Positions 898 to 44,971 of a DNA stretch of 64,000 nucleotides are shown here, one piece after another. Each line of letters begins with the position of its first letter. Within the stretch, counting starts at the first letter, position 1. The stretch lies in assembly GCA_964552475.1 (NCBI GenBank), contig CAZKFZ010000004.1, forward strand, positions 22,283-86,282, given 5' to 3'. This stretch comes from an uncultured Candidatus Saccharibacteria bacterium. Its GTDB lineage: Bacteria > Patescibacteriota > Saccharimonadia > CAILAD01 > BJGX01. The translations under genes were made by a program, and so were the position numbers. A model generated the notes under the pieces. It did no database searches, was not told the DNA's origin, and was given only the letters and a program-made list of their open reading frames with translations.

Positions 898-963
898 ATT
901 TTTACTCTCATACTTATGCCTATTATATCAAAATACCCTCTATTCCAGAGGGTGTTTTGATAA

Positions 964-1338
964 TAAGTTAGCTATAAGCCGAATTTTGTCCTCCGTCTAT
1001 TGACGGATGTGTAATCATCTATCTTCCCTTGCGGGCGTCCGTCGATCGACGGATCATGCGATATACCCTTAAAGAGCGAGTAACTCTTCTGCCAAATAAG
1101 CAGATGGGCCCATAATCTTGCAGCCGGTAGGGTTTACCACCTTCTACAGTCACCCATAGAAGTTGCGAGCTCTTACCTCGCTCTTTTCACCCTTACCCCT
1201 CACTAATAGTGGCTAGGGGCGGTATAGTTTCTGTGGCACTTTCCCGAGAGTCACCTCTGGTTGCTGTTAACAACTACCGTACTCTAAGCTGTTCGGACTT
1301 TCCTACCGCCTAATGCCGGTTGATTACCCACTAACTTA
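964..1338 (-). ncRNA. rnpB: RNase P RNA (bacterial type A-like)
   Basis: The minus-strand reading contains the universally conserved P4 segment GGUAGGAAAGUCCGAACAGC. It also contains CCACAGAAACUAUACCGCC and GGGGUAAGGGUGAAAAGAGCGAGGUAAGAGCUCGC (compare E. coli M1 GGGUAAGGGUGAAAGGGUGCGGUAAGAGCGCACC). The 3' terminal segment is GGACAAAAUUCGGCUUAUAGCUAACUU (compare E. coli ACAGAACCCGGCUUAUCGG). A P1 helix forms between 5' AAGUUAG and 3' CUAACUU. The region is GC-rich relative to its flanks and contains no ORF. Confidence 0.75.
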
Positions 1339-1372
1339 TCAGTAATAATATAGCACTTTTTTACTAAAATGT

Positions 1373-5905: not shown

Positions 5906-5981
5906 TGGTCAGGGTGACAGGACTTGAACCTGCGACCTCACGGCCCCCAGCCGTACGCGCTACCAACTGCGCCACACCCTG
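5906..5981 (-). tRNA. tRNA-Pro (anticodon GGG)
   Basis: The reverse complement folds as a cloverleaf: acceptor CAGGGUG/CACCCUG, anticodon stem UACGG/CCGUG, loop CUGGGGG giving anticodon GGG, T-loop GGUUCAAGUCC, encoded CCA. A hairpin plus U-run terminator follows immediately at about 5875..5905. Confidence 0.85.
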
Positions 5982-7281: not shown

Positions 7282-7914
7282 TTATTGTAGCACAATAGGG
7301 TGCCCTAATATAACCGATGCTAGACCCGTAACTAAGCTTAATATAAATGGCCCAATAAACTTATAAAGTAGTAGAAGTATTACAAATATCATTAATATAC
7401 CATACCGCTCCATCTGATCCATTACATCTTGCATACTACTTGGCAACACAGCATATAACACCCTAGACCCGTCTAGGGGTGGTATAGGTATCATATTAAA
7501 CACAAAAAATGCTAAGTTAATTAGTACGAATTGCAACAAGAATATTCCAGCTATGCCACCTATGTCAAATAATCTAAGAAACAGACCTACAAATATTGCC
7601 ATAACCAAGTTACTTGCTGGCCCAGCAACTGCTACCAGAGCTGCTCCCCATTTACCATAACGCACCGCATAAGGGTTGAAAGGAACGGGTTTGGCAGCCC
7701 CAAATACTACTGGTGAACCAATAAGGATAAGTGCTACAGGCAGAAATAGGGTTGAAAAAGGATCAATATGAGCGATTGGGTTGAGAGTAAGTCTACCCTC
7801 TCTTTTTGCAGTCACGTCGCCCAGTAAATGCCCCGCCCAGGCATGGCAAAATTCATGCACCGTAAGAGCAATAATTACAATAACTAGATATAATCCAATT
7901 GCTGCTAAGTTCAT
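7282..7914 (-). CDS. Site-2 protease family (peptidase M50) zinc metalloprotease
   Basis: 210-aa polytopic membrane protein with the HEFCHAW HExxH motif inside a TM helix. Confidence 0.75.
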   Translation of the reverse strand: MNLAAIGLYLVIVIIALTVHEFCHAWAGHLLGDVTAKREGRLTLNPIAHIDPFSTLFLPVALILIGSPVVFGAAKPVPFNPYAVRYGKWGAALVAVAGPASNLVMAIFVGLFLRLFDIGGIAGIFLLQFVLINLAFFVFNMIPIPPLDGSRVLYAVLPSSMQDVMDQMERYGILMIFVILLLLYKFIGPFILSLVTGLASVILGHPIVLQ

Positions 7915-9178: not shown

Positions 9179-9718
9179 TTATTCTATAACTACTAGTCTT
9201 TGTTGATCTACGTCGATAAGTTCTTTCTTCTGTACCTTAAACTTAGTAGATTTTTCTTGCTCTTGGCCAAGCTCATCTATAAATGCTTTTAACTCGTCTG
9301 GAGAATAACTATGCGGAATAACCACTTTTGGCTCTATTTGACTAATCACCTTGGTAACAGTTCCGGTTTTATCGCTTTTAACAGGTACAAGTAAAATATC
9401 TACGCTCGCAAATGCTTCAAGCTGCAGATCGGTCAATACATCTTCTATTGAGGCTAGGTAGGCCACCCTAATGCCTTCACTTAATACCGAGAAAGCTGTG
9501 TTGTCTTTGGCGATATCTATTGCATCGATCATGCAGTTTTTAACTTCATACTCGCCAGGCGAGTCAAAAACCACTAGCCCGCCTACTTTATTAACTTTGT
9601 CTTTTTGGTGATCTGAAAAAAGAACAGCATCGGCTTTAGGGTTCATATCTTCAAGCGATATATTAATTGACCTAGTAACAATATAAAAATGGTTTTTGTT
9701 GGTCTTTGTAATTTCCAT
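9179..9718 (-). CDS. Degenerate MBL-fold (beta-lactamase-like) hydrolase-like protein
   Basis: 179 aa with ADAVLFSDHQKD (degenerate HxHxDH), VDILLVPV and VVIPHSY segments resembling COG2220-type metal-dependent hydrolases. Confidence 0.35.
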   Translation of the reverse strand: MEITKTNKNHFYIVTRSINISLEDMNPKADAVLFSDHQKDKVNKVGGLVVFDSPGEYEVKNCMIDAIDIAKDNTAFSVLSEGIRVAYLASIEDVLTDLQLEAFASVDILLVPVKSDKTGTVTKVISQIEPKVVIPHSYSPDELKAFIDELGQEQEKSTKFKVQKKELIDVDQQRLVVIE

Positions 9719-9769: not shown

Positions 9770-10804
9770 TTATTTCTCTACCTGCTCGTTATAATATTGA
9801 TATAAGCTACTAACTATTACCGATGCTGCTGCCGTAACTGGTACAGCAATTAAAACACCTACAAAACCAAATAGAGTACCTCCTATCAAAGCGGCAAGCA
9901 GTACCAACATAGGATGTATGCCTACAGTCTTCTTCATCACTTGTGGCACAATAAGGTTGCCCTCTATCTGTTGAATTACCAAGAAAAATATCGCAACTAT
10001 AACTGCCTTAAGTGGTGATCCAGTAAGTAGTGCAAATAACACGGCAGGGATTGCCCCTAAATAAGCTCCAACCATCGGTACAGCCTCCATAAGACCAGCG
10101 AATAGTGCAAGCGTAAGAGCATAATCTACACCAATAATACTTAGACCTATATAAGACGCCACAAAAATTACCAAACAAAGTATAGCTTGTCCACGCAACC
10201 ATCCACCAAGCTTATTAGAAACATCATGCAGTAGCTTAACAAACTGTTCTCGCCAAAGCTTCTTTGGTAGCATGCCAGACAATAAAACCGCAAACTGCCG
10301 ACCGCTAGCCAACATATAGATTAGAAATATAAAGAAAGTTAAAAAGCTAAATAATCCACCTGCTACACCTAGTGATATAGCTGTAGCATTAGCACTAATT
10401 CTTTCTGCACTTTTATGAAGATTTTCGGCTGCTTTGTCGTAGATAAACTGCGTATATGTTTGATGCGACGAAAATTCTTGAATTTTATCTTGATAATATG
10501 GCCAATGAGAGTTTAGAGTTCTGGCCTGAGTAACTATTGTTGGTATTATGAGTGCCGACACTATCACAAAAACTGCCACAATACTTATTACCACAATCGC
10601 CACGGCCAACCCTCTACGCAAATGTAGCCGTCTTTCAATACTCGATACCACTGGGTTTAAGGCTACAGCGAATATCCCAGCTGCAAGAAGAGATATTATT
10701 ATTCCAGATATCTGAAACATAACCCAGACAAACAAAACCGTTAGTAGTAAATACAAAAACGATAGTGGTGAGATAATAATAATATGTCGCTTGGTATCTT
10801 TCAT
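9770..10804 (-). CDS. AI-2E family transporter (PerM/YdiK-like)
   Basis: 344 aa with about 8 TM helices and the characteristic C-terminal GxWLRGQ...MEAVPMVG region. Confidence 0.75.
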   Translation of the reverse strand: MKDTKRHIIIISPLSFLYLLLTVLFVWVMFQISGIIISLLAAGIFAVALNPVVSSIERRLHLRRGLAVAIVVISIVAVFVIVSALIIPTIVTQARTLNSHWPYYQDKIQEFSSHQTYTQFIYDKAAENLHKSAERISANATAISLGVAGGLFSFLTFFIFLIYMLASGRQFAVLLSGMLPKKLWREQFVKLLHDVSNKLGGWLRGQAILCLVIFVASYIGLSIIGVDYALTLALFAGLMEAVPMVGAYLGAIPAVLFALLTGSPLKAVIVAIFFLVIQQIEGNLIVPQVMKKTVGIHPMLVLLAALIGGTLFGFVGVLIAVPVTAAASVIVSSLYQYYNEQVEK

Positions 10805-12332: not shown

Positions 12333-13711
12333 GACGAAATACCCCCTATACTGCTATCGCCTTTTTTTGCAATTATCTCCCGTATATTCATCATTGCGGT
12401 ATAGGTAGGAAGTATATATGCGGTATTATCTTTGGGCGTAAGTTCGATAAGTTTATTTAGGGCTTTTTCTATGTTGGGCTCGATGTTTATTTTATCAATA
12501 CCAATTCCGGCATACTTAAGTCTAAGCGCCATATCGTAAGCTCTACTACCACTTACCACAATTTTTGCTTTGTAGCTACTAATATCTTCAATGGCGCTGT
12601 CCCATAGCCACGACACATCCCTACCATCTGCTAAGTAATCATTAATACATATAAGGAGAGGTTGGGTCTGTGGCTTTGGTTTTAGATAAGTTTGTATTAC
12701 CTGGTTTAATCCAGTAGGGTTTTTAATAAGAATTAGTTCTATTTTTCTTTGAGAGTAAGTTAGTTCTTCGCCTCTACCAAAGGCAGGTGTACTATTATTA
12801 AGCGTTTCTACAAGGGTGTTTGTTGTAATATTAAGGATATTTGCCACACCTATAACCGCTAAGGCATTATATATATTGTATAGCCCTGGTAACTTTAGAT
12901 TAATTTTTAGTACTTCTGTTGGTGTTTTCACATCAATTTTGGAACCATTCTTAGATATTTGATGCATTTTAGATAGTGCTATTTGGGGTTTCGGTCTAGA
13001 GTTGTGAGTATTTTCAGACCTGTAGATTCCAACGTGGCTAAAATAACGTTGTAAATATTTCAACTTTTTTCCATTATTTATATCAAATACACTATCGGCA
13101 GTATAATCGTGCTCTATCTTCTCACCAATATAGTCATCGACACCAAAGTATACAACGTCTTTTTTTGATTCCCTACCTAAACTTGCCACTAGAGGGTCGT
13201 CTGCATTAAGAATAAGAGTAGATTTAAGCTTTTTAAAGGTGTTGCGGAAATTCTTTGCTATACTATCTAGTTCACCATAACGGTCTAACTGATCTCTAAA
13301 AAGGTTGGTAACAACAACGTAGTCGGGCTTTAAATCTCTACAAACACTAGGTATATAGGCCTCATCCACCTCAAAAACGGCCATATCCTCCTCGCATCTG
13401 CCTTTACTATTGCTATGAGCCAAAATTGCGGCAATTATACCTCTTCTAAGGTTAGAGCCGGCAGTATTGCGAACAAAGCTTATACTGCTACGCTTCAAAA
13501 CGTCTGCTAGTATTTTTGAGGTGGTAGTCTTACCGTTCGTACCAGTAATAACAATAACCCCTTTTGGAAAATTATCCTTGCGCAACTTGCTTAGTAGATC
13601 AGAGTCTACTTTTTCTGCAACCAAGCCGGGCATAGCCGTACCGCTCAATCTAAACAATCTACCCGTAGATCGAGCTAGTTTAGCCGATTGTATTGCTATA
13701 TATTTACGCAT
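12329..13711 (-). CDS. murT: Lipid II isoglutaminyl synthase MurT (Mur ligase family)
   Basis: 460 aa with the Mur ligase central domain P-loop VIVITGTNGKTTTSKILA and a DUF1727-type C-terminus. Forms an operon with gatD. Confidence 0.8.
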   Translation of the reverse strand: MRKYIAIQSAKLARSTGRLFRLSGTAMPGLVAEKVDSDLLSKLRKDNFPKGVIVITGTNGKTTTSKILADVLKRSSISFVRNTAGSNLRRGIIAAILAHSNSKGRCEEDMAVFEVDEAYIPSVCRDLKPDYVVVTNLFRDQLDRYGELDSIAKNFRNTFKKLKSTLILNADDPLVASLGRESKKDVVYFGVDDYIGEKIEHDYTADSVFDINNGKKLKYLQRYFSHVGIYRSENTHNSRPKPQIALSKMHQISKNGSKIDVKTPTEVLKINLKLPGLYNIYNALAVIGVANILNITTNTLVETLNNSTPAFGRGEELTYSQRKIELILIKNPTGLNQVIQTYLKPKPQTQPLLICINDYLADGRDVSWLWDSAIEDISSYKAKIVVSGSRAYDMALRLKYAGIGIDKINIEPNIEKALNKLIELTPKDNTAYILPTYTAMMNIREIIAKKGDSSIGGISS

Positions 13712-16794: not shown

Positions 16795-16871
<77 letters not shown>

Positions 16872-23298: not shown

Positions 23299-23374
23299 TG
23301 GAGCCGATGAGCGGGATCGAACCGCTGGCCTATACTTTACGAAAGTATCGCTCTACCAACTGAGCTACATCGGC
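23299..23374 (-). tRNA. tRNA-Thr (anticodon CGU)
   Basis: The reverse complement GCCGAUGUAGCUCAGUUGGUAGAGCGAUACUUUCGUAAAGUAUAGGCCAGCGGUUCGAUCCCGCUCAUCGGCUCCA has anticodon loop UUCGUAA and T-loop GGUUCGAUCC. Confidence 0.85.
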
Positions 23375-27106: not shown

Positions 27107-27266
27107 TTGTCACCTATTTAGGATTGTGAAAGAGCTTTACGGCACCTAGAATACCATATTTTATTAAAATATTCAATAATAAATTTATTTGGTGTGGCTC
27201 GATCCGGATAGCGACAGAATACTTCGTTTTTGTCTAACCGGCTTCGCCGGTCAAACCTGGTCATCA

Positions 27267-27292
27267 TGAAAAAAGCATCACAGTAGTGATGC
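27267..27292 (-). terminator. Rho-independent terminator downstream of the XRE regulator gene
   Basis: Minus-strand GCAUCAC-UACU-GUGAUGC hairpin followed by UUUUUU. Confidence 0.6.
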
Positions 27293-27451
27293 ACTTTTCA
27301 TGGCGGGGGCTAGTTGTTACATTGAGAACTTGTGCTAATGACTTTGAGGGTTATGAGTTTGATAATTTGTTTGACGCTATTGAAGAGCACGAGCCAAGTC
27401 TTGCCATATTACAACCAGCATCAGCTCAATAGGCTATAGCTCACTTGTTGA

Positions 27452-27673
27452 TTAGAGCCTTTTGAATAGGTCTACTAGCGATATATTAAGAGCCTTTGCT
27501 ATCTTATGGATATTCCCAATACTCGGATTGCGTTTACCTTGCTCAATAAACCCAATATAAGTTCTATGAACATCAATTATATCTGCTAGTTTTTCTTGCG
27601 TAATACCCGTTTTCTTACGAACTTCAGATATTCGCCGACCTAACTCTTTTAAAAATAAATCTTCAGAAGCCAT
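27452..27673 (-). CDS. XRE-family HTH transcriptional regulator
   Basis: 73 aa with the canonical Cro/C1 HTH (ITQEKLADIIDVHRTYIGFIEQGKRNPS). Confidence 0.8.
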   Translation of the reverse strand: MASEDLFLKELGRRISEVRKKTGITQEKLADIIDVHRTYIGFIEQGKRNPSIGNIHKIAKALNISLVDLFKRL

Positions 27674-27764
27674 ACATACAGTTTGTCGCTATTAGCCTGT
27701 TGCTTCTACAGACAGCTTGTAGCATAATTATGAATAAGAAATAACAATTTAAGGAGAAGATGTA

Positions 27765-29226: not shown

Positions 29227-29583
29227 CGCTTGAAACCTGAGGTTGAGAGGATTACTCTCAATGAATACGACGAATATGTTAAAGACCTAAAAGCTAGGCA
29301 AGAGCAATTGGATGAGCAACTCGTAAGCCTTACGCATAACGACAAAAGCTTTATGCTAACCAGCTCATACCTGTTAGAGATAGCCACAAAAGCCCCTAAG
29401 CTATTCCAAAGTTCTAAAGCGGCTCTAAAATCAAAGCTATTACGCTTTGTACTTTCTAACCTTGAATTACACGATAAAAAGCTCCATTTCAATCTAAAAA
29501 CACCCTTTGATGTAATCGCAGAGTGTTCTCAAAATGCTGATTGGCGGGCCCGACCGGATTTGAACCGGCGATCTCCTCCGTGA
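29200..29583 (+). pseudogene. C-terminal remnant of a large serine recombinase (DUF4368-like tail)
   Basis: The ORF encodes a coiled-coil-like segment (EYDEYVKDLKARQEQLDEQL) followed by KSKLLRFVLSNLELHDKKLHFNLKTPFDVI, resembling the conserved C-terminal tail of large serine recombinases. No N-terminal catalytic part exists upstream on this strand. The 3' end overlaps the tRNA-Asp 3' end. Confidence 0.3.
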
Positions 29584-29618
29584 CAGGGAGGCGTGTTAGG
29601 CCTCTACACCACGAGCCC
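29542..29618 (-). tRNA. tRNA-Asp (anticodon GUC)
   Basis: The reverse complement GGGCUCGUGGUGUAGAGGCCUAACACGCCUCCCUGUCACGGAGGAGAUCGCCGGUUCAAAUCCGGUCGGGCCCGCCA has anticodon loop CUGUCAC and T-loop GGUUCAAAUCC. Confidence 0.85.
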
Positions 29619-30310: not shown

Positions 30311-30988
30311 CTACACCCCTTTCAGGCCAGGTTTGGTAGCTAAGCGATATGTTAGCGACACTCGTGGCCCGCAAATTGGCGGAGGTACTGAGTGTGTAGG
30401 GCGCAAATCTTCATCTGTTGGGTACAAACCTGGCGCACGCATAATTAGCTCACTACCAGGACCAGTTTGCAATACTCTATTGGGCACAGTGTCATCACGA
30501 GTTGAATACATTTTTAGTTCACCCGTGCCAGCAATGGTATATGACACAATTAGGTGAATATCGCTACTGTAATCGCGATGACGTCCAATACCATCATAAC
30601 GATCGCTATAGCGTTGCACAGCAACATCGTTAGGTTGCCAGGTTTGCAAGCACTTATAGCGACCAGCACTAGCTCTTACCATCTGGCCTAGCGTATCGCC
30701 CAATTCTCGCATAAGTGGGTAGTTTTGCCGTGTAGACTCGTCAAAATAGACCGGCGCAAATACCTCGAATCGCTGGTATACACCTTGTTCTATGTCGAAA
30801 AAGCGACAAAATTCACCTTTTAGTACCTCACTTGCCAAAGCTTTGGTGAAATCTCGGCTCAGTGCCTGGGTAGTAAAGGCATAGCCACTTCTGCCTGCAT
30901 CCGAAATTCGCCCGGCATAATCTGGTGGTGTAGCAAATATCTCCATTACACTCCCCTTTCGAGTTTGTTTAGCAAGACATACCAACAA
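30311..30988 (-). CDS. 2OG-Fe(II) dioxygenase, AlkB-like
   Basis: 225 aa with the HRD (HxD) ... H ... RVSLTYR arrangement. The last element closely resembles the AlkB RxNLTFR 2-oxoglutarate-binding motif. Confidence 0.55.
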   Translation of the reverse strand: MLVCLAKQTRKGSVMEIFATPPDYAGRISDAGRSGYAFTTQALSRDFTKALASEVLKGEFCRFFDIEQGVYQRFEVFAPVYFDESTRQNYPLMRELGDTLGQMVRASAGRYKCLQTWQPNDVAVQRYSDRYDGIGRHRDYSSDIHLIVSYTIAGTGELKMYSTRDDTVPNRVLQTGPGSELIMRAPGLYPTDEDLRPTHSVPPPICGPRVSLTYRLATKPGLKGV

Positions 30989-31272
30989 CTTATGTGAATA
31001 AGGTAACAGCGATGCCCTAAGCGGTCCAGCACTACCTCTACCGTATCTGTTAAGGCAAAATCCACTCCGCAGCCATTACAAGCACTTCCTACAGCCTTAG
31101 GGTAGCATTCTAGCTCAAATACACCTTCGCTCTCGAGTACTTTTAACATCTTAGTCTCCTTTGTGAGTAGCGATATAGTAATTGGGCCTGCTGTAGCCAT
31201 GACTAACCATATACCAACACAACGCAATAGACGCCGGCCCAAAAACAACCTCAGGCTCGATATCGTTAGCAT
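30946..31272 (-). CDS. Small Cys-containing hypothetical protein (possible NifU-like fragment)
   Basis: 108 aa. The segment VFELECYPKAVGSACNGCG resembles NifU/Nfu CxxC regions. The frame overlaps the next small ORF, so a frameshifted single gene is possible. Confidence 0.25.
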   Translation of the reverse strand: MLTISSLRLFLGRRLLRCVGIWLVMATAGPITISLLTKETKMLKVLESEGVFELECYPKAVGSACNGCGVDFALTDTVEVVLDRLGHRCYLIHISCWYVLLNKLERGV

Positions 31273-31333
31273 CCCATGCCTCTAGAGCTTCTATAGAGTT
31301 TCTGCATATAACATACAGATTGGTCTTACACAT
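31151..31333 (-). CDS. Small hypothetical protein
   Basis: 60-aa ORF overlapping 30946..31272 in another frame. Weak call. Confidence 0.2.
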   Translation of the reverse strand: MCKTNLYVICRNSIEALEAWDANDIEPEVVFGPASIALCWYMVSHGYSRPNYYIATHKGD

Positions 31334-31383
31334 TTTTGGCTCCTAAAGTTGATTGTTAAGGTTCTCTCGGTAGCTTTAATACT

Positions 31384-31411
31384 AAAAAACTGCCCGAGAA
31401 GGCAGTTTTTT
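31384..31411. terminator. Bidirectional rho-independent terminator
   Basis: AAAAAA-CUGCC-CGAGAA-GGCAG-UUUUUU: a perfect 5-bp GC-rich stem flanked by an A-run and a U-run. Confidence 0.55.
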
Positions 31412-31635
31412 AGTTAATATTAGTAATAATTACAGATACAAGCTTAAAAACTCCCTTCTAAAGCAGTGTTTCTAGCAAAATATTGAAATGATGACCAAGT
31501 GGTGTGTTTTTTATTCAGTAACATTATTTCTCTCTCTTATGTCTATAAGCATAACAAAATCAAAAATTATTGTCAAAAATGGTGCTCTACAGGTTGGTGT
31601 ATCTGTTAAACTATATAAAAAAGTGTTAAAAACTA

Positions 31636-31664
31636 TTGACTTTTATGTAATAGTTTGCTATAAT
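31636..31664 (+). promoter_or_regulatory. Consensus sigma70-type promoter
   Basis: TTGACT, 17 nt, TATAAT: a perfect -35/-10 pair with optimal spacing. No protein-coding gene follows. Confidence 0.6.
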
Positions 31665-31670
31665 ACCCCT

Positions 31671-32119
31671 AATGCTTAGTCAGTAGGCAGAGAACCTCAC
31701 AGATCAAAAAACCACAAAAAGAAACTGAGAGGAGGTGCACGTGTTCGTCATTCAGAACCGTGCTACCGAGTATATAGATAGTTTCTAGGAGCAGTTGGAG
31801 CCTCTACTAGAGCCGTTAATCTATATCTTATAGATAATGGCTCAAAAACGCTTTTACCACCCGGCATATCCGCCAGACTTTTACATATTGAGTTACCAAA
31901 CTCATTCATGGGTAGACCCATGAGTATTTGTGAAAGTAAAGGAGTTAGCGACAAAAAATTGACGCTAAGGTATCAGCGCCGTAGAGTACTCTCATCTGTT
32001 CCGTCCTTAAGGACAACTAACAATGTTAGTTTGTCCGCTTTACGACCCATCTAGCCTTGCGAGCAATGCTCCTTGGCAGACGGGTCGATAGACCCCACCT
32101 TTATTAGGTGGGGTTTTTT
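31671..32119 (+). ncRNA. Candidate ncRNA or small-peptide transcript of about 450 nt (unclassified)
   Basis: Delimited by the consensus promoter at 31636..31664 and a strong intrinsic terminator at 32093..32119. The longest plus-strand ORFs inside are 15, 27 and about 44 codons. Several stable hairpins are present. It is not tmRNA (no tRNA-like 3' end), and RNase P RNA has already been found elsewhere. Confidence 0.35.
32093..32119 (+). terminator. Rho-independent terminator
   Basis: CCCCACC-UUUAUUA-GGUGGGG followed by UUUUUU. Confidence 0.7.
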
Positions 32120-32146
32120 CTATTCTAAGTTGTGTTTTTAATATAG

Positions 32147-32560
32147 TTATTTAGAATCTATAGAATAAGTCATGCCACATACAGCGCCAAGATCTATATC
32201 GCTGCTTATTGCTTGATTATAAAGATCTTCTAATACAACCAATATTATATTGGTATTAGCACCAGCACTTTCTAGATAAAACCGCTCGCCAGACACATTA
32301 TCGAACAACTCTATGGCTTGCAAGGGCCATTGTTTGGCTACAGAATAGGCATGGCGTAGCTCAGCCTCAGTAATTAGCCAAGCAGTTTTTTGGTGACTTT
32401 TAAGGCTCTCAAAAGTCTCGGCTACGTTGCCGGTAATATGATAATTATTGCTTTGCAAAGCACTTTTGAGGTTATCTATATTACTGTCTTTTTCATAAAT
32501 AATAAGACCAACCTCGCGACTTTGGGCTTGAGCTGTTAAAAAAGTGTGTAAATCTTGCAT
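32147..32560 (-). CDS. Hypothetical protein, third gene of the AAA_5/vWA module
   Basis: 137 aa, co-oriented with and 24 nt downstream of the vWA gene. No motif recognised. Confidence 0.4.
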   Translation of the reverse strand: MQDLHTFLTAQAQSREVGLIIYEKDSNIDNLKSALQSNNYHITGNVAETFESLKSHQKTAWLITEAELRHAYSVAKQWPLQAIELFDNVSGERFYLESAGANTNIILVVLEDLYNQAISSDIDLGAVCGMTYSIDSK

Positions 32561-32584
32561 ATTAGTTATATCTTAACATAATAC

Positions 32585-34639
32585 TTAAGCTTGCTCTATA
32601 ACGCGCCTTAGTACCTCTACTAGTGCGGCTGGCAACTCAGCTACATCTTGTATTACTGAATAGTCTGGGTAGTAATCGGCTACAGAATCTGATTGTATAC
32701 CGATACTAGCTAGTTTTTGGTTGGTATTATGAATTATGTTGTCTACCACCCTATGCAAATCATATTCGGGCCCATTGTGCCTGTAGCTTTCGGCTGGCTG
32801 TCCATCAGATAAAATAACTACAATTTTCTCGGTACCAGGTTGCTGAGACAAACGTTCAGAGGTTTCTGTAAGCGCCCAACCATCGTCATTGTACCCAGAT
32901 AAATCATAATCGCTTGCTTCTTCTATCATACCAGGAATAATTTCGCGACTTGGTTTACCAAACTGCTCATCAAACCCCTTGTATTTATGCAAAACTGAAT
33001 TAAAACCATATATTTCAAAACGAATATTAAGCTTACTTAGCACCTCAGAAAACACTATAGCGCTCTTTAGGGCCTCTTCTACTCTATCGCCTGCCATAGA
33101 GCCAGATAAATCTACTAGTAGACTTATAGTATAGTCTTTTTGGGTGGGTAACTCTCGCCTCTCCCAGGCTTTGCTTTGTACAGCCGAAACACCCTTAGCT
33201 TTTTCGGATATCCGCTTGCCAATATTAATACGTTTACCCGTACGATAGCCACTTTTGTAGCCATGCGAAGATCTGGCAATAAATAAGTTATTAAGATCGT
33301 TATACAAGCTATCTATGAGTGGCTTGAGCTCTTTGTAGAGTTCATTATAGTAATCTAGTTGCTCGTCTTGCTCGGTTTTTTCGCTAGGCTGATCTTCTTG
33401 GTCACCCTCTTGTGAGGGCTTAACGGGCTCTATATCGGCATCGGCATCGAGAGGTTCGCCCGAGTCACTATCTGAGGCTTCGCTAATACTAAGCTTGGCT
33501 TCTAGTTGGTCGGTAATCTCTTTATCTAAATCGGCTAGGGCCTCGGCAGCCTCTTCGTGTAGCTGTTGTTTAACATCTTCTGGCAAACTAGCAATAAATT
33601 CTTGTAAGGCCTTGAGTTGCTCTGCGGATAGGTCTGAAAGTTTAATGGGTTGGTAGTAGCCTTGCTCTTTGGCAATTTCGGCGGCCTGCTGAAGCATCTC
33701 TTGCAAGTCACTTGGTAATTCGTTAAAGCCTTCGGGGGTATTTCCGTCTACCAAATCTTTTATCATTTTGTGTAGTTGTTTGGCGGCGGCGGCATTGGCT
33801 ATATCGATATCGACAAGTTTTTTAAATTCTGGCCAAATTTGGTCGGTTAATATTGCCCCACTAGCTTTGGCGTATTTATCTACCAAGGCGCTCGATCTGT
33901 CGGCCTCTTCTTTGGTAGGGTATGTCCACCACATATCTTGTAAGTATGGAGCTACTCTTGCAACATAATCTTTTATTTCTTGAGGTAGTTCTGGGTTTAC
34001 CTGTATGGGTTGGCGTTGTCTATCTTGATACCAAAGACTCATATTCTCATAACTAGCTAATACATGGAGTGGTTCAAATCCCAGTTCAGACTGAGCTCTT
34101 TGTATGGCACTATGGTGCTTTTCTAGATAGTCTTTATAATAAATATCCATCCCTTCATCTAATAATCTATAATTGTCAGATAAAAAATTATTTACCCTAG
34201 GATCTTCTAAAACGCTATATAGCACATTTCCACCTGGCAGGTGACGCATTTCTTGCACCGACTCAATGATACGGGTTATTCGCCTATGACTGGCCTCGTG
34301 GCCAATGCTCCAGCGATTTTCTTGAGCAGGGCGCTCTAGTAGATCTTGTAAACCCACAGCTACGTAGTTTTCATTCATACTCCAATACCATTCACGGCCC
34401 GGCGCGAGTATTACTGGCATATCGAAGTCTTTACCTATAAAGCTACTTATCACACTTAAGCTTCGCAAGCGTTCTTGCACCACCCGACGTTGAGACAAGG
34501 GCAAGCTAGCTAGCATAGCCTCAGAACGTTCTTTGTCAGCCTGGTAGGTTAGCTCAGGGTCTGGGGCGTGACCATCACGCAGTACTCCACTGGCAGGTGG
34601 TTCGGCCTTGGCAGCGTATGTCTTTTCTATCTCACCCAA
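32585..34639 (-). CDS. vWA (MIDAS) domain protein with an N-terminal HExxH putative metallopeptidase-like domain (DUF2201-like architecture)
   Basis: 684 aa. N-terminal SIGHEASHRRI (HExxH). The central region is an acidic coiled-coil/low-complexity linker (DSDSGEPLDADADIEPVKPSQEGDQEDQPSEKTEQDEQ). The C-terminal vWA domain has ISLLVDLSGSM (MIDAS DxSxS) and VVILSDGQP. Confidence 0.6.
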   Translation of the reverse strand: MGEIEKTYAAKAEPPASGVLRDGHAPDPELTYQADKERSEAMLASLPLSQRRVVQERLRSLSVISSFIGKDFDMPVILAPGREWYWSMNENYVAVGLQDLLERPAQENRWSIGHEASHRRITRIIESVQEMRHLPGGNVLYSVLEDPRVNNFLSDNYRLLDEGMDIYYKDYLEKHHSAIQRAQSELGFEPLHVLASYENMSLWYQDRQRQPIQVNPELPQEIKDYVARVAPYLQDMWWTYPTKEEADRSSALVDKYAKASGAILTDQIWPEFKKLVDIDIANAAAAKQLHKMIKDLVDGNTPEGFNELPSDLQEMLQQAAEIAKEQGYYQPIKLSDLSAEQLKALQEFIASLPEDVKQQLHEEAAEALADLDKEITDQLEAKLSISEASDSDSGEPLDADADIEPVKPSQEGDQEDQPSEKTEQDEQLDYYNELYKELKPLIDSLYNDLNNLFIARSSHGYKSGYRTGKRINIGKRISEKAKGVSAVQSKAWERRELPTQKDYTISLLVDLSGSMAGDRVEEALKSAIVFSEVLSKLNIRFEIYGFNSVLHKYKGFDEQFGKPSREIIPGMIEEASDYDLSGYNDDGWALTETSERLSQQPGTEKIVVILSDGQPAESYRHNGPEYDLHRVVDNIIHNTNQKLASIGIQSDSVADYYPDYSVIQDVAELPAALVEVLRRVIEQA

Positions 34640-34669
34640 AACAACAAATACCTATTATTATTTAACACC

Positions 34670-37039
34670 TCACAACTCGGCTCCCCAAGAGTGATTACGC
34701 TTGGGTTCACTATTTTGTTGGCTACTAGTGGGTCCCCAGCCTGGTGAGTGAGTGGGTGGCGGTGGTGGGTTTGGAGTAGGTGGCCGTGAAGCTGTGGGTG
34801 GAGACGATATTGGCGAGCCGGCCGGCGCAAAAGCCGAACCAGCCATTGGGGTACCGATAGGCGATGACCCGGTTGGTACTCCACTAGCAGGTGTAGAAGT
34901 AGTACCCAAACTTTCTACAGCATTTAGGGCTTGCAATACCCAGTTGTTACCTATAGACATAGCATAGTAGTCAGGCTTATCAGCGTAGTGGTCTTCGCGC
35001 GCTTGCCAGGCTCTGGGTGAAAAACAACCACTCATGCTCTTGGCAAGCGTAGCTTCAGAAACACGTCCCTCAAGTATTTCTCTAATACCCCAAGCCCAAT
35101 CGGTATCTAGGCCGGCTAAAGATATGGCAAGTGCCTCTTCATTTCTATTAGTTATAAACTCATTTCTTATATCGCTTGCAGTACTTGAGTCGTCACCAGA
35201 AATCGCCCAAGCTATGGCTGTTAGCTTCTCGCTTTCTGTAAGACCAAATAAGTTGACATCTAATTCTAGTAGTTCTAACTTTACCGCAGTGGTATTGGGG
35301 TATTTAATATAGCGCATGCCGAGTGCAAAAGCACTGGGTTTTTTACCAGCTTCTTTTAAAACCACCATTAACTCAGAAAGTCCTGGTGTTTGGCTTAGAC
35401 CGGCAAGAGAAGTGATGATAGCATTTATATCTTGTTCGTCAAAAGAGTCTATATCTGATTTTATCACTTCTATAAATTGCTCTTCACCACCATAATGCGA
35501 TACCACATCGTGACCAACCATACCATTAAAACCTGCGGAGTGTCTACTAGCCATTAATAGTCCATTAAGATCTGATTCAACGTCAGCGCCCATAACTCCT
35601 GCCAAAGACTTACCATAGGCTTTGGTGTTGCCGGACTTGTTCTTTGTATCTATTCGAATGGTAAAGGCTGTTTCCGAAGGATTGCCAGCAAGGGCGGTAA
35701 GTATAACCGGATCTTTGGCTGGCCCAGCTGGCCCAATGAATACCTGCAACTCTTGTAGGCGTTTGGCAATATATTCGGGGTCTCTTAGAGTTTCGGGGTC
35801 GCTTGGTAACTCTGCTGTGCTACTGCTACCACTTACTCCGCGCCTACGTGAGTCGCCAGTGTCTTCTACCTTGATAGTGTGTATTTTATCTATCATTTCT
35901 TGGCGTTCAGTTGGGTCGGCAAGTTTATTGGCATAGTAATACTCGAGTGCTCTGTGGACGGTTGCGTTAAGATCACCATTATAAAAATTACAAATAAACT
36001 CAGCTACTCTGTTTATTTCTTCGCGGTCGTCATAGCTTATTTTTTGAGGTTGGTCGCGTCCTATCTCACCTGCTTTGGCTTGGCTTTTTACCATAAAGTG
36101 AAAAATACGAATTTGCTCAGCCATATCGGCCATGCCAGGAATAGCACCCAGTTCTTCGCGAGTAAGAGTGCGTTCTCCGCTGTGTAGATATTTACTCTCA
36201 TTTGGTTTAGCAACTTCGGTGCCTTTTTTCAGTCCAAACGTAGCATCTACATAGCCCTCCACCGACTCTTCTGGTAACTCCTCTGGTAATTTAATATAGA
36301 CCCATCTTCTAAACTGGGCGGGGTCTAGAGGGTGACGCTCTGAATACTCGCTACCGTTACGACTAGGAGCGTTACCAAGAGCAACAATGCTAAGATTCTC
36401 ACGCACTACCTTGAGCCGTTTAGAAGCATCTTCGGTTACACTAACCATTCCAGAGTCTTCATAAGCATCTATGACTTCGTGCAGACGTATAAGAATATCG
36501 GGGGTGGCAGCATTGAACTCGTCCACCATTAAGATTACTTTATGGCCTTTTATTGCCTCTTCTATAGCTGCCGTAACCGGGCCATTGGCAAAAACATACT
36601 CAGGGTCTTCGGTAGAGTGACGGTCTGGGTTGGGCGCGTACTGACCCATAAGAGACGATGTATCGTCACTACCCTTCATGTTGATATAGTGAACAGACCA
36701 ACCCAGCTCGTGAGCCATTTTACGCACAGCCGAGCTCTTACCTACCGAAGTGCCAGCTTCTACAAACACAGGCTGATGCAAAGCAAAAGCTGTTGCTAGG
36801 TCGCGTTGCAATTCTTGACTAAACTCATCTTCTACATAGCCTTCTTTCTTAAGCGGGACTTGCTCTTCTTCACCAGTACCTTTAGGTAGGCGCACGCCCA
36901 AATATTCAACATATTGGGGCTCAGCAACAGCTGCCAATTCCACAAGATGTGGCATATCTACAGACGATGGCTCACTACCTACTGGCGTAGGCTCATTTGC
37001 TACATCTGACCCACTATCACCGAGTGCTGGTTCTGGCAC
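34670..37039 (-). CDS. AAA_5 (MoxR/CbbQ/NorQ-like) ATPase with a long C-terminal extension and Pro-rich tail
   Basis: 789 aa. Walker A is AGTSVGKSSAV and Walker B is ILMVDEFN within an AAA_5-like core (residues about 90-290). About 450 aa of helical repeats follow. The C-terminal 80 aa are a Pro/Ser/Thr/Gly-rich low-complexity region ending PPTPNPPPPPTHSPGW. Confidence 0.6.
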   Translation of the reverse strand: MPEPALGDSGSDVANEPTPVGSEPSSVDMPHLVELAAVAEPQYVEYLGVRLPKGTGEEEQVPLKKEGYVEDEFSQELQRDLATAFALHQPVFVEAGTSVGKSSAVRKMAHELGWSVHYINMKGSDDTSSLMGQYAPNPDRHSTEDPEYVFANGPVTAAIEEAIKGHKVILMVDEFNAATPDILIRLHEVIDAYEDSGMVSVTEDASKRLKVVRENLSIVALGNAPSRNGSEYSERHPLDPAQFRRWVYIKLPEELPEESVEGYVDATFGLKKGTEVAKPNESKYLHSGERTLTREELGAIPGMADMAEQIRIFHFMVKSQAKAGEIGRDQPQKISYDDREEINRVAEFICNFYNGDLNATVHRALEYYYANKLADPTERQEMIDKIHTIKVEDTGDSRRRGVSGSSSTAELPSDPETLRDPEYIAKRLQELQVFIGPAGPAKDPVILTALAGNPSETAFTIRIDTKNKSGNTKAYGKSLAGVMGADVESDLNGLLMASRHSAGFNGMVGHDVVSHYGGEEQFIEVIKSDIDSFDEQDINAIITSLAGLSQTPGLSELMVVLKEAGKKPSAFALGMRYIKYPNTTAVKLELLELDVNLFGLTESEKLTAIAWAISGDDSSTASDIRNEFITNRNEEALAISLAGLDTDWAWGIREILEGRVSEATLAKSMSGCFSPRAWQAREDHYADKPDYYAMSIGNNWVLQALNAVESLGTTSTPASGVPTGSSPIGTPMAGSAFAPAGSPISSPPTASRPPTPNPPPPPTHSPGWGPTSSQQNSEPKRNHSWGAEL

Positions 37040-37077
37040 TATACCCTCCTTTTGTTTTTTTAAATCTTAATACTTAA

Positions 37078-38133
37078 CTATGGTTGAAAATACTGAACAA
37101 TCTTGGCATTGTTGCGCTGTTCGCGTAACCAACTATCAAAATCTGGCCCTTTTATAAGAATGTGGCTAGCGCGAACTTGATCGCCGTTTCTCTCAGTAAC
37201 TTTTATAATGTGGTAACCATATTGAGTTTTTACTACTTTACTAACTTGGCCAGGTTCTAGCGCAAATGCCGCAGCCTCAAACTCTGGCACCAACTGACCT
37301 TTACCAAAGAATCCTAAGTCGCCACCATTGGCAGCACTACCGTCTCCGCTGTATTGTTTGGCTAGTGCAGCAAAATCTCCGCCAGCGTTTATTTGGGCCA
37401 ATATACTTTCAGCCTGTTTTTGGGCGGGCTCGGTAAGTGCGGGGTCGCTAAGTACTTTGTCGGATAATTTTTGTCGTACTAGTTGTTGGCGAATCTTATC
37501 TTTAAAATCGTCGGTAGACCAACCGTATAGTTTGTCTAGAGTGCGTTTTACTTGATCTATGCCACCAGCATCTTTCACTAGCTGGTTGAATTTTTCATCT
37601 ACTTCTTTACCAGTAACTTTTATGCCATATTTGTTAGCTTGCTGGGTAATAATAATATTATCTTCTAACTGTTTTATAAGGTCTTGCTTGAACTGCAAAA
37701 GTTGTTGCTTACCTTCTTCTGAATTGAAGTCTTGGTTTTGAGTTTGGAAATATTTTTGGGCCGAAGTAAGCTCAAAAAGGTAGTCGTTATAAGTAGCGGT
37801 GTTCCAGATGATATTACCATTTACGCTAGCTACTGGGTAAGGTACTACTTTGCTAGCAATTTTAACTGCTCTGTTGCCCACCTTATACTTGTAGATAAGT
37901 ACACCAAAAACAGTAATAGTAATAACCAAACAGATAAGGGCAATAATGCCCACATTACGAACATTTTTCTTGTTTTTTTCTGGGTCTACACCCAACTTAT
38001 TGAGTTTGTCTTTAAAAGACATACTCTTTTGCGAGATAGCTTTTTTTGCTGCAGCTGTCTTGCTACCTTTTTTGGCTGTGGGTTTGGCTTTCTTGGGGGT
38101 TTTAGACGATTTAATATCTGGATCTTTTGGCAT
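37078..38133 (-). CDS. Parvulin-type peptidyl-prolyl cis-trans isomerase (PrsA/SurA-like), membrane-anchored
   Basis: 351 aa with an N-terminal TM helix and a PpiC domain ([22 protein letters not shown]...YGYHIIKV). Confidence 0.75.
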
Positions 38134-38205
38134 AATTAGTTTTTAAAACTCCTTTAGTTTTCTATTACTGCACTTATTAGTAGCTTAATGATACACTTTT
38201 TGAGC

Positions 38206-38745
38206 TCACTTGTCCAAGTCGCTACGACGAATTATCTCTAGTATGGCTTGTTGCATTTTAACAGGCTTATGAACAGTTCTTAAGCGTAAGGGCTTGCTAC
38301 CCGAAAGAGTCTCTATTGTAACCGTACCAAAACCCAAAAGCGAACCTTGCATACCTACTATTTTGTAATTGACATTTTGCACGTTGTTAAGAGCCAGTTC
38401 TTTGACCTCGCGACTAAAAAAGCCACGTTGTTTTACTATCATAATGCGGTGATTGGTGACTACATAAACACTATAGTACCAACCTACCCAAGTTCTTAGC
38501 CAATAAAACGCCAAGCCTATAAGACCAATAAAGATAAACCAGTTGGCATACACTAGCCAATCATAAAAGTTAGCCGTAGCGATAGCCCAGGGTATCATTA
38601 CTACCAATATAACCAACATGCCGAAGATAAGAGCTCGGCGCATTACTATTGGATGTTGATGTTCTACCAAAATAACTTGTTCGTCATCGTGCTGGCCAGC
38701 AAAAGTGTGGCGCTTGGCTCTTGATTGTTTAGTGCTTCTTGCCAT
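38206..38745 (-). CDS. Bacterial PH-domain (YdbT/DUF304-like) membrane protein
   Basis: 179 aa with two TM helices followed by a bPH_2-like domain. Confidence 0.45.
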   Translation of the reverse strand: MARSTKQSRAKRHTFAGQHDDEQVILVEHQHPIVMRRALIFGMLVILVVMIPWAIATANFYDWLVYANWFIFIGLIGLAFYWLRTWVGWYYSVYVVTNHRIMIVKQRGFFSREVKELALNNVQNVNYKIVGMQGSLLGFGTVTIETLSGSKPLRLRTVHKPVKMQQAILEIIRRSDLDK

Positions 38746-38827: not shown

Positions 38828-38903
38828 GCCCTGGTAGCTCAGTGGATAGAGCGTCGCCGTCCTAAGGCGAGCGTCGGGGGTTCGAATCCCTCCCAGGGTA
38901 CCA
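38828..38903 (+). tRNA. tRNA-Arg (anticodon CCU)
   Basis: GCCCUGGUAGCUCAGUGGAUAGAGCGUCGCCGUCCUAAGGCGAGCGUCGGGGGUUCGAAUCCCUCCCAGGGUACCA, with anticodon loop GUCCUAA and T-loop GGUUCGAAUCC. Confidence 0.85.
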
Positions 38904-44594: not shown

Positions 44595-44623
44595 TTGACA
44601 TATATGCTTATGCTTGCTATAAT
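44595..44623 (+). promoter_or_regulatory. Consensus sigma70-type promoter
   Basis: TTGACA, 17 nt, TATAAT, 13 nt upstream of the ATG at 44636. Confidence 0.55.
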
Positions 44624-44635
44624 ATCCAACGTTCG

Positions 44636-44971
44636 ATGAAACCTCATCGATTCAACAGTCGAGGAGACAAAGTGCCTAGAGTTAGGGTTTCTGGGATATC
44701 AATTGGTGGTTTCCTTGCCACTATTGAACCCACGGTAGAGTTTACAAACAAACTACATACGCTATGGAAAGGTGAATTAGAAGACGCACATAACGCAATA
44801 AATAACCCTGAGGTTCTGTCAAGAATTCACCGTTGGCAAAATCGACCCGCGAGTATTGGTCGTCAACGAATTAGATTTCCAGGGATAATCGTCTCTGTAC
44901 GAAAAGGTTTAAAATACCAACAAGTACTTGCTTATGACAAATACGGTACGCTTGTCATGGATAAGACCTAG
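44636..44971 (+). CDS. Hypothetical basic protein
   Basis: Internal Met (MKPHRFNSRGDK...) of the 44555 ORF, chosen because the consensus promoter lies inside the longer ORF. 111 aa with no recognised motif. Confidence 0.35.
   Translation: MKPHRFNSRGDKVPRVRVSGISIGGFLATIEPTVEFTNKLHTLWKGELEDAHNAINNPEVLSRIHRWQNRPASIGRQRIRFPGIIVSVRKGLKYQQVLAYDKYGTLVMDKT

Follow-up and report, generated by a model that had tools for sequence, protein, structure and literature searches.

What is encoded by a bacterial interval that carries a near-consensus promoter and a strong terminator, and between them some 450 nt that hold no conserved long open reading frame (ORF)? The question is raised by positions 31636–32119 (plus strand) of a 64-kb stretch of DNA, hereafter the window, from an uncultured Candidatus Saccharibacteria bacterium. 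An original prediction, made from the sequence alone, had described this interval as an orphan transcription unit for either an unclassified structured non-coding RNA or a small-protein or toxin transcript. The description as an orphan unit holds, with promoter and terminator bracketing the ORF-poor interval, and of the two proposed products only the first agrees with our results. We favor, with moderate confidence, the view that the unit is a true gene, transcribed on its own, whose product is a stable and highly structured RNA of ~450 nt specific to a small Saccharibacteria-like branch of the Patescibacteria, and that this RNA is a two-module regulatory RNA. The existence, strand, structure, and non-coding nature of the gene rest on the results of computational tools, while its mode of action is what we infer from them.

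The promoter (31636–31664, plus strand) is composed of a −35 hexamer TTGACT (31636–31641), a 17-nt spacer and an extended −10 element, TGcTATAAT, with the TG at 31656–31657 and the hexamer at 31659–31664. It shows the TTGACT-17-TATAAT arrangement noticed at the outset, matches the consensus at 11 of 12 positions, and is one of three sites with at least 11/12 matches when both strands of the window are scanned. The GC-rich hairpin and U6 tract of the original prediction were likewise found as an intrinsic terminator (32091–32119, plus strand), GACCCCACC-loop-GGUGGGGUU followed by U6, whose stem pairs 32091–32099 with 32107–32115 (11 pairs in the scan, six of them G-C) and whose T6 lies at 32114–32119. 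The predicted transcript thus extends over ~450 nt (31671–32119, plus strand), with its start placed 7 nt past the −10 element and its end at the U-tract. The nearest genes on either side (30946–31333 and 32147–38745) are on the minus strand, so the unit possesses its own promoter and intrinsic terminator without a same-strand downstream gene, as a dual-function small RNA (sRNA) should. A cis-regulatory leader or riboswitch was rejected because a converging gene, not a same-strand one, follows the terminator. Elsewhere in the window, the sole 12/12 promoter with a TG (at 44595, in the region 44595–44971, plus strand) precedes GAGGAG and an ORF of ~100 aa that starts with GTG (44672–44971); no terminator was detected there, and this promoter drives a protein gene. 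The other large gap of the window, 27107–27764, contains a 73-aa ORF.

The interval is predicted to fold with great stability. The minimum free energy (MFE) of the 456-nt segment is −174.8 kcal/mol, compared with −109.3 ± 6.3 for dinucleotide shuffles (z = −10.35), so that the several stable hairpins noted originally were real and understated; the complementary strand gives z = −7.2. In a 450-nt tiling of the whole window, z falls below −6.5 only in the tile with the unit and in that with the RNase P RNA. The latter is a full-length bacterial class A molecule (959–1339, minus strand; 209 bits in Rfam). Related sequences were grouped into lineages: the window lineage comprises the window, the same-species variant L004 and a second species (L005, L006, L007, and L010), and the L008 lineage comprises L008/L009 (a 651-kb JGI contig), L173, and L175, the last two being two further species; L090 belongs to neither of them. 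The corresponding folds have z values of −7.9 (L005), −4.8 (L008), −4.8 (L175), and −3.4 (L090).

Does the unit encode a protein? The ORFs of 15, 27, and 44 codons listed originally are present on the plus strand, as a 15-codon ORF running from GTG to TAG (31741–31788), a 28-aa ORF (31837–31923) and a 48-aa ORF (31908–32054, the 44 codons beginning at an internal ATG), while two 63-aa ORFs had been overlooked, one antisense (31763–31954, minus strand) and one running over the promoter (31488–31679, plus strand). None of the unit's ORFs of at least 20 aa is kept in L005: the 28-aa ORF is reduced to two codons (ATG GCT TGA), indels and a new stop codon disrupt the 48-aa ORF, and the antisense ORF is frame-shifted. 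Comparison by tblastx between lineages detected no coding similarity in any of them. Mismatches between the window and L005 distribute over the three codon phases as 37/24/28 in the RNA, compared with 99/49/239 in the adjacent VWA gene and 16/11/45 in the neighboring gene p137, and the RNA is 80% identical to L005, compared with ~65% at the third codon positions of the VWA gene. The high identity and the even phase spread together indicate that the interval is constrained, but not as coding sequence: the RNA sequence is under purifying selection without coding periodicity. The small-protein or toxin transcript, as framed originally, is therefore not supported, its two longer ORFs being lost. 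A type I toxin locus or the remnant of a protein gene could be read into the short ORFs scattered on both strands and into the left flank, which varies between lineages; given the same losses, and since selection acts on base pairs, no repeats are present and no hydrophobic ORF of 20–60 aa exists, we regard it as extremely improbable. The one surviving ORF, that of 15 codons, is not hydrophobic, and no longer intact gene was found in the relatives, so the interval is not a decayed pseudogene.

The pairing itself is maintained in the window lineage. The four sequences of the second species (81%-related) possess the complete unit in the corresponding position (nhmmer E = 2.5e-77 for L005), and both promoter hexamers and the TG of L005 are identical to those of the window. 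On the RNAalifold consensus of the window and its relatives, 97% of the pair cells are standard pairs, and eight pairs display double compensatory changes, compared with 0–2 in controls in which the 3′ partners were slid by 1–3 columns. These changes are located in the inner helices (11, 12, and 13) of a central domain and in both 3′ hairpins: H16 shows an A-U to G-C compensatory change in L005, and H17 two double compensatory changes together with two G-C to G-U changes. The G-U pairs of the consensus, combined with the orientation of promoter and terminator in all six sequences compared (see below), designate the plus strand as the functional one. Drawn from two species and one same-species variant, the compensatory changes are supportive, short of statistical proof. 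Together with the fraction of standard pairs and the lack of codon periodicity, they place the non-coding structured part under selection, a second property of dual-function sRNAs.

The consensus fold is multi-branched over its 450 nt, with all of the following elements on the plus strand. The 5′ hairpin H1 (31674–31688, GCUUA-loop-UAGGC) is invariant across three sequences and hence uninformative for covariation. It is followed by an A/C-rich linker (31697–31726), poorly conserved and different in the window and L005, and by hairpin H4 (31734–31767), whose 12 pairs contain the GTG start and the first nine codons of the 15-codon ORF and which is the same in the window and L005. The central multi-helix domain (31788–32002) is closed by GGAGCAG.UUGGA.GCCUCU / AGAGUA..UC.AUCUGUUCC and comprises inner helices at 31810–31843, 31849–31978, 31877–31937, 31889–31904, and 31906–31923 and an A-rich-loop hairpin at 31945–31968. 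Two hairpins stand between this domain and the terminator, H16 (32011–32036, GGACAACUAAC-AAU-GUUAGUUUGUCC) and H17 (32043–32087, CGACCC...GGGUCG), the latter with a conserved GCCUUGCGAGC..UGCUCCUUGGC tip.

The 5′ part of the unit carries a translation signal. A Shine-Dalgarno (SD)-like sequence, GAGAGGAGGUG (31727–31737, plus strand), lies downstream of the A/C-rich linker and includes AGGAGGTG at 31730–31737, which occurs once in the 64 kb, both strands considered, and stands 3 nt before the GTG. An A-rich leader precedes it in the window lineage, and CCUC at 31695–31698 is able to pair with GAGG at 31729–31732, within the SD. Of the 59 window genes (ORFs of at least 100 aa), only eight show GGAG or GAGG no more than 20 nt from the start codon. 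Many window genes carry TATAAT 5–12 nt upstream of their start codon (e.g., 1783, 39961, 42641, and 45713), which suggests that leaderless mRNAs are widespread. Six sequences were compared for the layout of the unit (window, L004/L005, L090, L008, L173, and L175), and all six possess an SD followed by a mini-ORF: the SD is GAGAGGAGG with 15 codons in the window (peptide MFVIQNRATEYIDSF) and in L004 and L005 (MFVIQNRATEFLDSL), AAAGGAG with 15–16 codons in L090 (M(M)DYSIYGRCTFKLSN), GAGAGGAGG again with 10 codons in L008 (MNNSTKFRLC) and eight codons in L173 (MHTKFRLC), and GAGAGGGGG with seven codons in L175 (MNTKFRL). Across the L008 lineage, neither a 3-nt indel nor the use of different start codons and positions has disrupted the reading frame. 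Judged from these sequence features, translation of the mini-ORF is plausible.

Such a signal could equally belong to a micropeptide mRNA, in which the peptide (15 aa here, 7–16 elsewhere) is the product and the folded 3′ part only stabilizes the message and terminates it. We consider this possible but rather unlikely. It would account for the presence, in a genome with few SDs, of a perfect one that occurs once in the window, follows an A-rich leader and stands 3 nt ahead of a GTG, for its association with a mini-ORF in all six sequences and for the survival of the L008-lineage frame through an indel. However, the peptides are unrelated between lineages (MFVIQNRATEYIDSF, MDYSIYGRCTFKLSN, and MNNSTKFRLC), the first 11 codons are nucleotide-invariant between the window and L005, without synonymous changes, though the RNA differs by 20%, and compensatory changes preserve the helices of the 3′ part, which makes up three-quarters of the unit, to a degree beyond the need of a stabilizer.

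Units of the same layout are found in distant relatives. In L090, whose VWA protein is 48% identical to that of the window, a unit stands directly after the p137 homologue in convergent orientation, with a 12/12 promoter with a TG, a stretch of ~400 nt devoid of long ORFs, and a terminator. The same arrangement, of ~390 nt, is seen in L008/L009 (VWA 40% identical), and the units of L008, L173, and L175 also have 12/12 promoters with a TG. L090 and L008/L173/L175 share the order of promoter, SD with a mini-ORF of 7–16 codons, structured body of 300 nt, and terminator. Within the three sequences of the L008 lineage, 12 pairs show double compensatory changes, compared with 0–2 in the slid controls, and the stem of the A-rich-loop hairpin is swapped with its pairing kept (UCUGCC/GGUAGA versus GCUUAUA/UAUAAGU). 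The region behind the VWA gene was inspected in the 161 loci that extend at least 600 nt past it: a convergent promoter scoring 11/12 or better and lying no more than 2.2 kb from this gene was seen only in the unit-bearing lineages, in L037 and, weaker and without a TG, in L076. In L037 (Zambryskibacteria), a 12/12 promoter with a TG and a terminator bracket a unit of ~150 nt (7690–7874, minus strand of the locus), convergent on the p137 homologue and squeezed in ahead of the following AAA_5 gene; possibly, this is the window unit's counterpart in a shorter form. The L008 RNA is immediately preceded, on the same strand, by a second non-coding unit of ~230 nt (12990–13254, minus strand of the locus), with a TTGACT-16-AATAAT promoter and a strong terminator, AACCCCACCAGG...CUUGGUGGGGUUU; this terminator recurs in L173 and L175. 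When the VWA protein and p137 were used for profile searches, just eight p137 clusters were returned. Of the five short p137-bearing metagenomic contigs (L170–L174), four stop 11–83 nt past the p137 stop codon, so that the RNA region is absent from them, and L173 continues for 478 nt; L170 shows a convergent terminator hairpin after the p137 homologue. The recurrent assembly breaks at the expected start of the RNA unit may reflect strain variability or coverage changes at the locus.

The unit faces a convergent operon (32147–37039, minus strand), which lies outside the RNA. It encodes an AAA_5 (MoxR-type) ATPase (34670–37039) and a CobT-like VWA protein without a TROVE domain (32585–34639), both assigned by Pfam, and p137 (32147–32560), a protein of 137 aa without a Pfam match whose gene converges on the RNA unit; a SurA-like peptidyl-prolyl isomerase gene is also among the minus-strand neighbors. 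Patescibacteria account for every homologue of the VWA protein; the closest genome (81% identity) is labeled uncultured Candidatus Saccharibacteria bacterium. The AAA_5/VWA/p137 trio is conserved across this group, with p137 invariably next after the VWA gene. The AlphaFold model of p137 (pLDDT 89.6) displays a small α/β AAA+-like core, closest to RuvB/NorQ (Foldseek E = 5e-4, TM ~0.5). The region had been taken for an accessory one. Indeed, its left flank varies between lineages, but the unit is fixed beside the operon even where the VWA proteins are only 40–48% identical.

This arrangement leads to a further explanation, in which the RNA is a convergent antisense partner or insulator of the AAA_5/VWA/p137 operon, read-through transcripts pairing with the RNA and being processed. 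The p137 stop codon is 27 nt from the U-tract of the unit, and on the minus strand the shared hairpin is followed by UCUAUCG and no U-tract; the converging operon is thus without a U-tract terminator of its own, which makes read-through and antisense pairing possible. The RNA stays on the p137 side in three lineages while the other flank changes, and a short convergent promoter-terminator unit follows p137 in L037 too. Operon read-through is nevertheless a supposition, an insulator has no need for a covariation-kept structure of 330 nt or for an SD and mini-ORF, and most Patescibacteria with the operon are without such a unit. As the main role of the unit, we find it unlikely. Numerous other Patescibacteria have, behind their p137 homologue, a diversity-generating retroelement (DGR) that fills this slot on the opposite strand and is unrelated to the RNA. 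In L061 (7549–11043; similar gaps occur in many of L013–L087), this element comprises an AAA_5 paralogue with a C-terminal variable repeat (9535–9656), a template repeat (9934–10055) with 17/17 mismatches at template adenines, a bAvd gene (10071–10538, minus strand) and, from 10444, a reverse transcriptase. Such diversification of an AAA_5 ATPase by a DGR beside a MoxR/VWA operon seems to merit separate study.

The same fixed adjacency where VWA proteins have diverged to 40–48% identity could mean that the RNA is a ribonucleoprotein subunit or ligand acting with the MoxR-type ATPase and VWA proteins, much as Y RNA does with the VWA-containing Ro60/Rsr. Both systems keep a non-coding RNA gene beside a gene for a VWA-domain protein. 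Here, however, the neighbors are a CobT/NorD-like VWA protein without TROVE domain and a MoxR-type AAA_5 ATPase, p137 models as a degenerate AAA+ core rather than an RNA-binding fold, the RNA is about four times the size of Y RNA and without a tRNA-like module (neither ARAGORN nor Rfam sees a tRNA-like element), and the operon is widespread without the RNA. We therefore judge such a partnership very unlikely.

On the left side, a divergent promoter and leader (31378–31576, minus strand) precede the genes p60, p108, p225, and a methyltransferase. The promoter, TTGACA-17-TATGCT with a TG, lies at 31576–31548, and its leader of ~160 nt ends in a hairpin and U-tract at 31411–31384. The bidirectional terminator originally placed at 31384–31411 thus exists as a hairpin, but fits better as part of this minus-strand leader. 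A segment upstream of it, AGAAGGGAGUUUUU, is able to pair with the 5′ half of the hairpin, AAAAAACUGCCUUCU, offering a choice between terminator and antiterminator; the whole looks like an attenuator, an unclassified riboswitch-like leader, or a small sRNA. The left intergenic region (31334–31635) is 89% identical to L005, above most coding DNA here. The p225 gene (30311–30988, minus strand), which precedes the MTS-type methyltransferase, is 93% identical to its L005 orthologue and its product matches nothing in Pfam, even at E = 0.1; on visual inspection, it shows an H-x-D ... H ... R-x-S pattern reminiscent of 2-oxoglutarate-Fe(II) oxygenases.

Does the RNA belong to a known class? Rfam 15 at gathering thresholds gave no match within 31636–32119. 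The same scan of the window found the RNase P RNA and five tRNAs, and the score of the former indicates that Rfam models work in this organism. In a lax search of 31350–32250 (E up to 10), all matches were sub-threshold and centered on two terminator hairpins: those inside the unit were sRNA families over the terminator and 3′ hairpins (32034–32156), and the others fell on the 31384–31411 hairpin outside the unit. The equivalent units of L008 and L037 gave no Rfam match either. These results agree with the unclassified structured non-coding RNA envisaged originally. ARAGORN also found five tRNAs in the window: tRNA-Pro(GGG) (5906–5981), tRNA-Val(GAC) (16795–16871), tRNA-Thr(CGU) (23299–23374), and tRNA-Asp(GUC) (29542–29618) on the minus strand and tRNA-Arg(CCU) (38828–38903) on the plus strand.

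A very divergent universal RNA (transfer-messenger RNA (tmRNA), 6S, or signal recognition particle (SRP) RNA) missed by the Rfam models in this phylum would be compatible with the size of the unit, its strong promoter and its internal short ORF, which are superficially tmRNA-like (~350–450 nt). Nevertheless, the RNase P RNA was found at 209 bits in the same Rfam run, neither the tmRNA clan nor 6S matched at E up to 10, and SRP RNA gave no match even at that threshold with lax filters. ARAGORN found no tmRNA in the window, and no T-arm, acceptor stem, or CCA is seen by eye in the unit, which is without a tRNA-like domain; the ORF stands behind an SD (AGGAGGTG), which tmRNA lacks, and ends in ...YIDSF, not in a hydrophobic degradation tag. 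The multi-branched fold of 450 nt is not a 6S-type rod of ~180 nt. We thus give this explanation hardly any credence.

Several other classes were rejected. A CsrB/RsmZ-type sponge for CsrA would be rich in GGA motifs, but none of the six RNAs has more of them than expected from shuffles. Repeat-array RNAs (CRISPR, TIGR, and ToxI-type) are excluded since no direct repeats occur in 31600–32130 and no tandem repeat in the unit. A DGR template RNA is excluded since no part of the RNA has a second copy in the window that could form a template/variable pair; in addition, no reverse transcriptase or Avd domain was detected among the ten neighboring proteins scanned. Search by blastn against 50,697 phage records gave no match that would indicate a phage origin. 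No description of this RNA was found by full-text searches of the literature; for TM7x, the model Saccharibacterium, "no currently validated small RNAs" are reported (2022 preprint, 10.1101/2022.03.25.485537).

We propose that the unit may produce an abundant regulatory RNA with two modules, by analogy with the dual-function RNAIII of Staphylococcus aureus. The 5′ module would consist of the A-rich leader, the perfect SD and the 15-codon mini-ORF, with the start codon held in a hairpin and the SD possibly clamped by CCUC; ribosome binding or translation at this module might remodel or stabilize the RNA, or make a micropeptide. The 3′ module of ~330 nt, formed by the multi-helix domain and the two hairpins, would be the effector, binding a protein or other RNAs. 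Were the operon to read through into the RNA gene, the RNA might in addition act as an antisense partner of the 3′ end of the operon.

Several observations weigh against this two-module reading. The covariation counts rest on 2–3 distinct sequences per lineage, too few for R-scape-type statistics to apply, and the shuffle control is optimistic where sequences are related. Transcript ends are predicted from the promoter and terminator, and helix 2 of the MFE fold, which pairs the 5′ end over a long range with the U-tail, is probably an artefact. The unrelated peptides and the invariance of the first 11 codons count here as well; H4 alone could account for that invariance. A simple target search by RNAduplex against 60 translation-start regions and the divergent leader yielded nothing better than shuffles, and the p137 model bears no sign of an RNA-binding domain. 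Homology between lineages could not be demonstrated: of the 169 loci searched by nhmmer, with either the window RNA or the L008 RNA as query, only close relatives were recovered, and a covariance model of the L008-lineage core (R1, 162 nt), run with filters off, gave nothing significant in the window, L005, or L090. Moreover, R1 matched only its own training sequences among 168 loci, and short words shared between lineages are at chance level. On sequence grounds, the three lineage versions may be fast-evolving homologues or analogous units. A bolder proposal takes them for fast-evolving homologues and the window unit for the founding member of a new class of large (~400–450 nt) structured RNAs of Patescibacteria, which would dock ribosomes or 30S subunits via the perfect SD and mini-ORF, in genomes whose other mRNAs are for the most part translated leaderless or without an SD, and act on the translation apparatus or the adjacent MoxR/VWA chaperone system rather than by base-pairing like an ordinary sRNA; we think this improbable.

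The genomes of Patescibacteria (the candidate phyla radiation) are tiny and densely packed with coding sequence. Some 800 nt of non-coding DNA are retained here, apparently the longest ORF-free stretch in the window according to the ORF lists. An RNase P-like degree of structure, a promoter among the top three of the window and the retention of non-coding DNA together suggest that the function of the RNA repays its cost to a streamlined epibiont. As a structured and possibly dual-function bacterial regulatory RNA, the unit would be of a general kind already known and, within it, a candidate for a new RNA family, represented by few species so far. As a concrete candidate, with ends, strand, helices, and mini-ORF all specified, it provides a seed alignment for such a family, and its window-unique SD in an SD-poor genome offers an unusual handle on the use of translation signals in these organisms. 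Its interest would grow if expression and deeper covariation were to confirm the unit and if the link between the SD and the SD-poor genome were to prove functional.

Two groups of known systems invite comparison. OLE, GOLLD, ROOL, and raiA are large structured bacterial non-coding RNAs whose function is unknown or was recently found. The window unit resembles them in its unusually large and intricate fold, conserved intergenic structure, and narrow phylogenetic range, but its body has no Rfam match even below threshold, it is known from 2–3 sequences per lineage so far, it is smaller than OLE, GOLLD, and ROOL, and it carries an SD and a mini-ORF. Dual-function RNAs include S. aureus RNAIII (514 nt, encoding the 26-aa δ-haemolysin), Bacillus subtilis SR1/SR1P, and Escherichia coli SgrS/SgrT. 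The window unit differs from the RNAIII type in having no sequence or Rfam relationship to it, in its shorter mini-ORF (7–16 codons) with a non-conserved peptide and in its host, a Patescibacterium with mostly SD-less genes. It shares with that type a stand-alone unit of several hundred nucleotides, many hairpins, an SD-preceded 5′ ORF, and a larger structured non-coding body.

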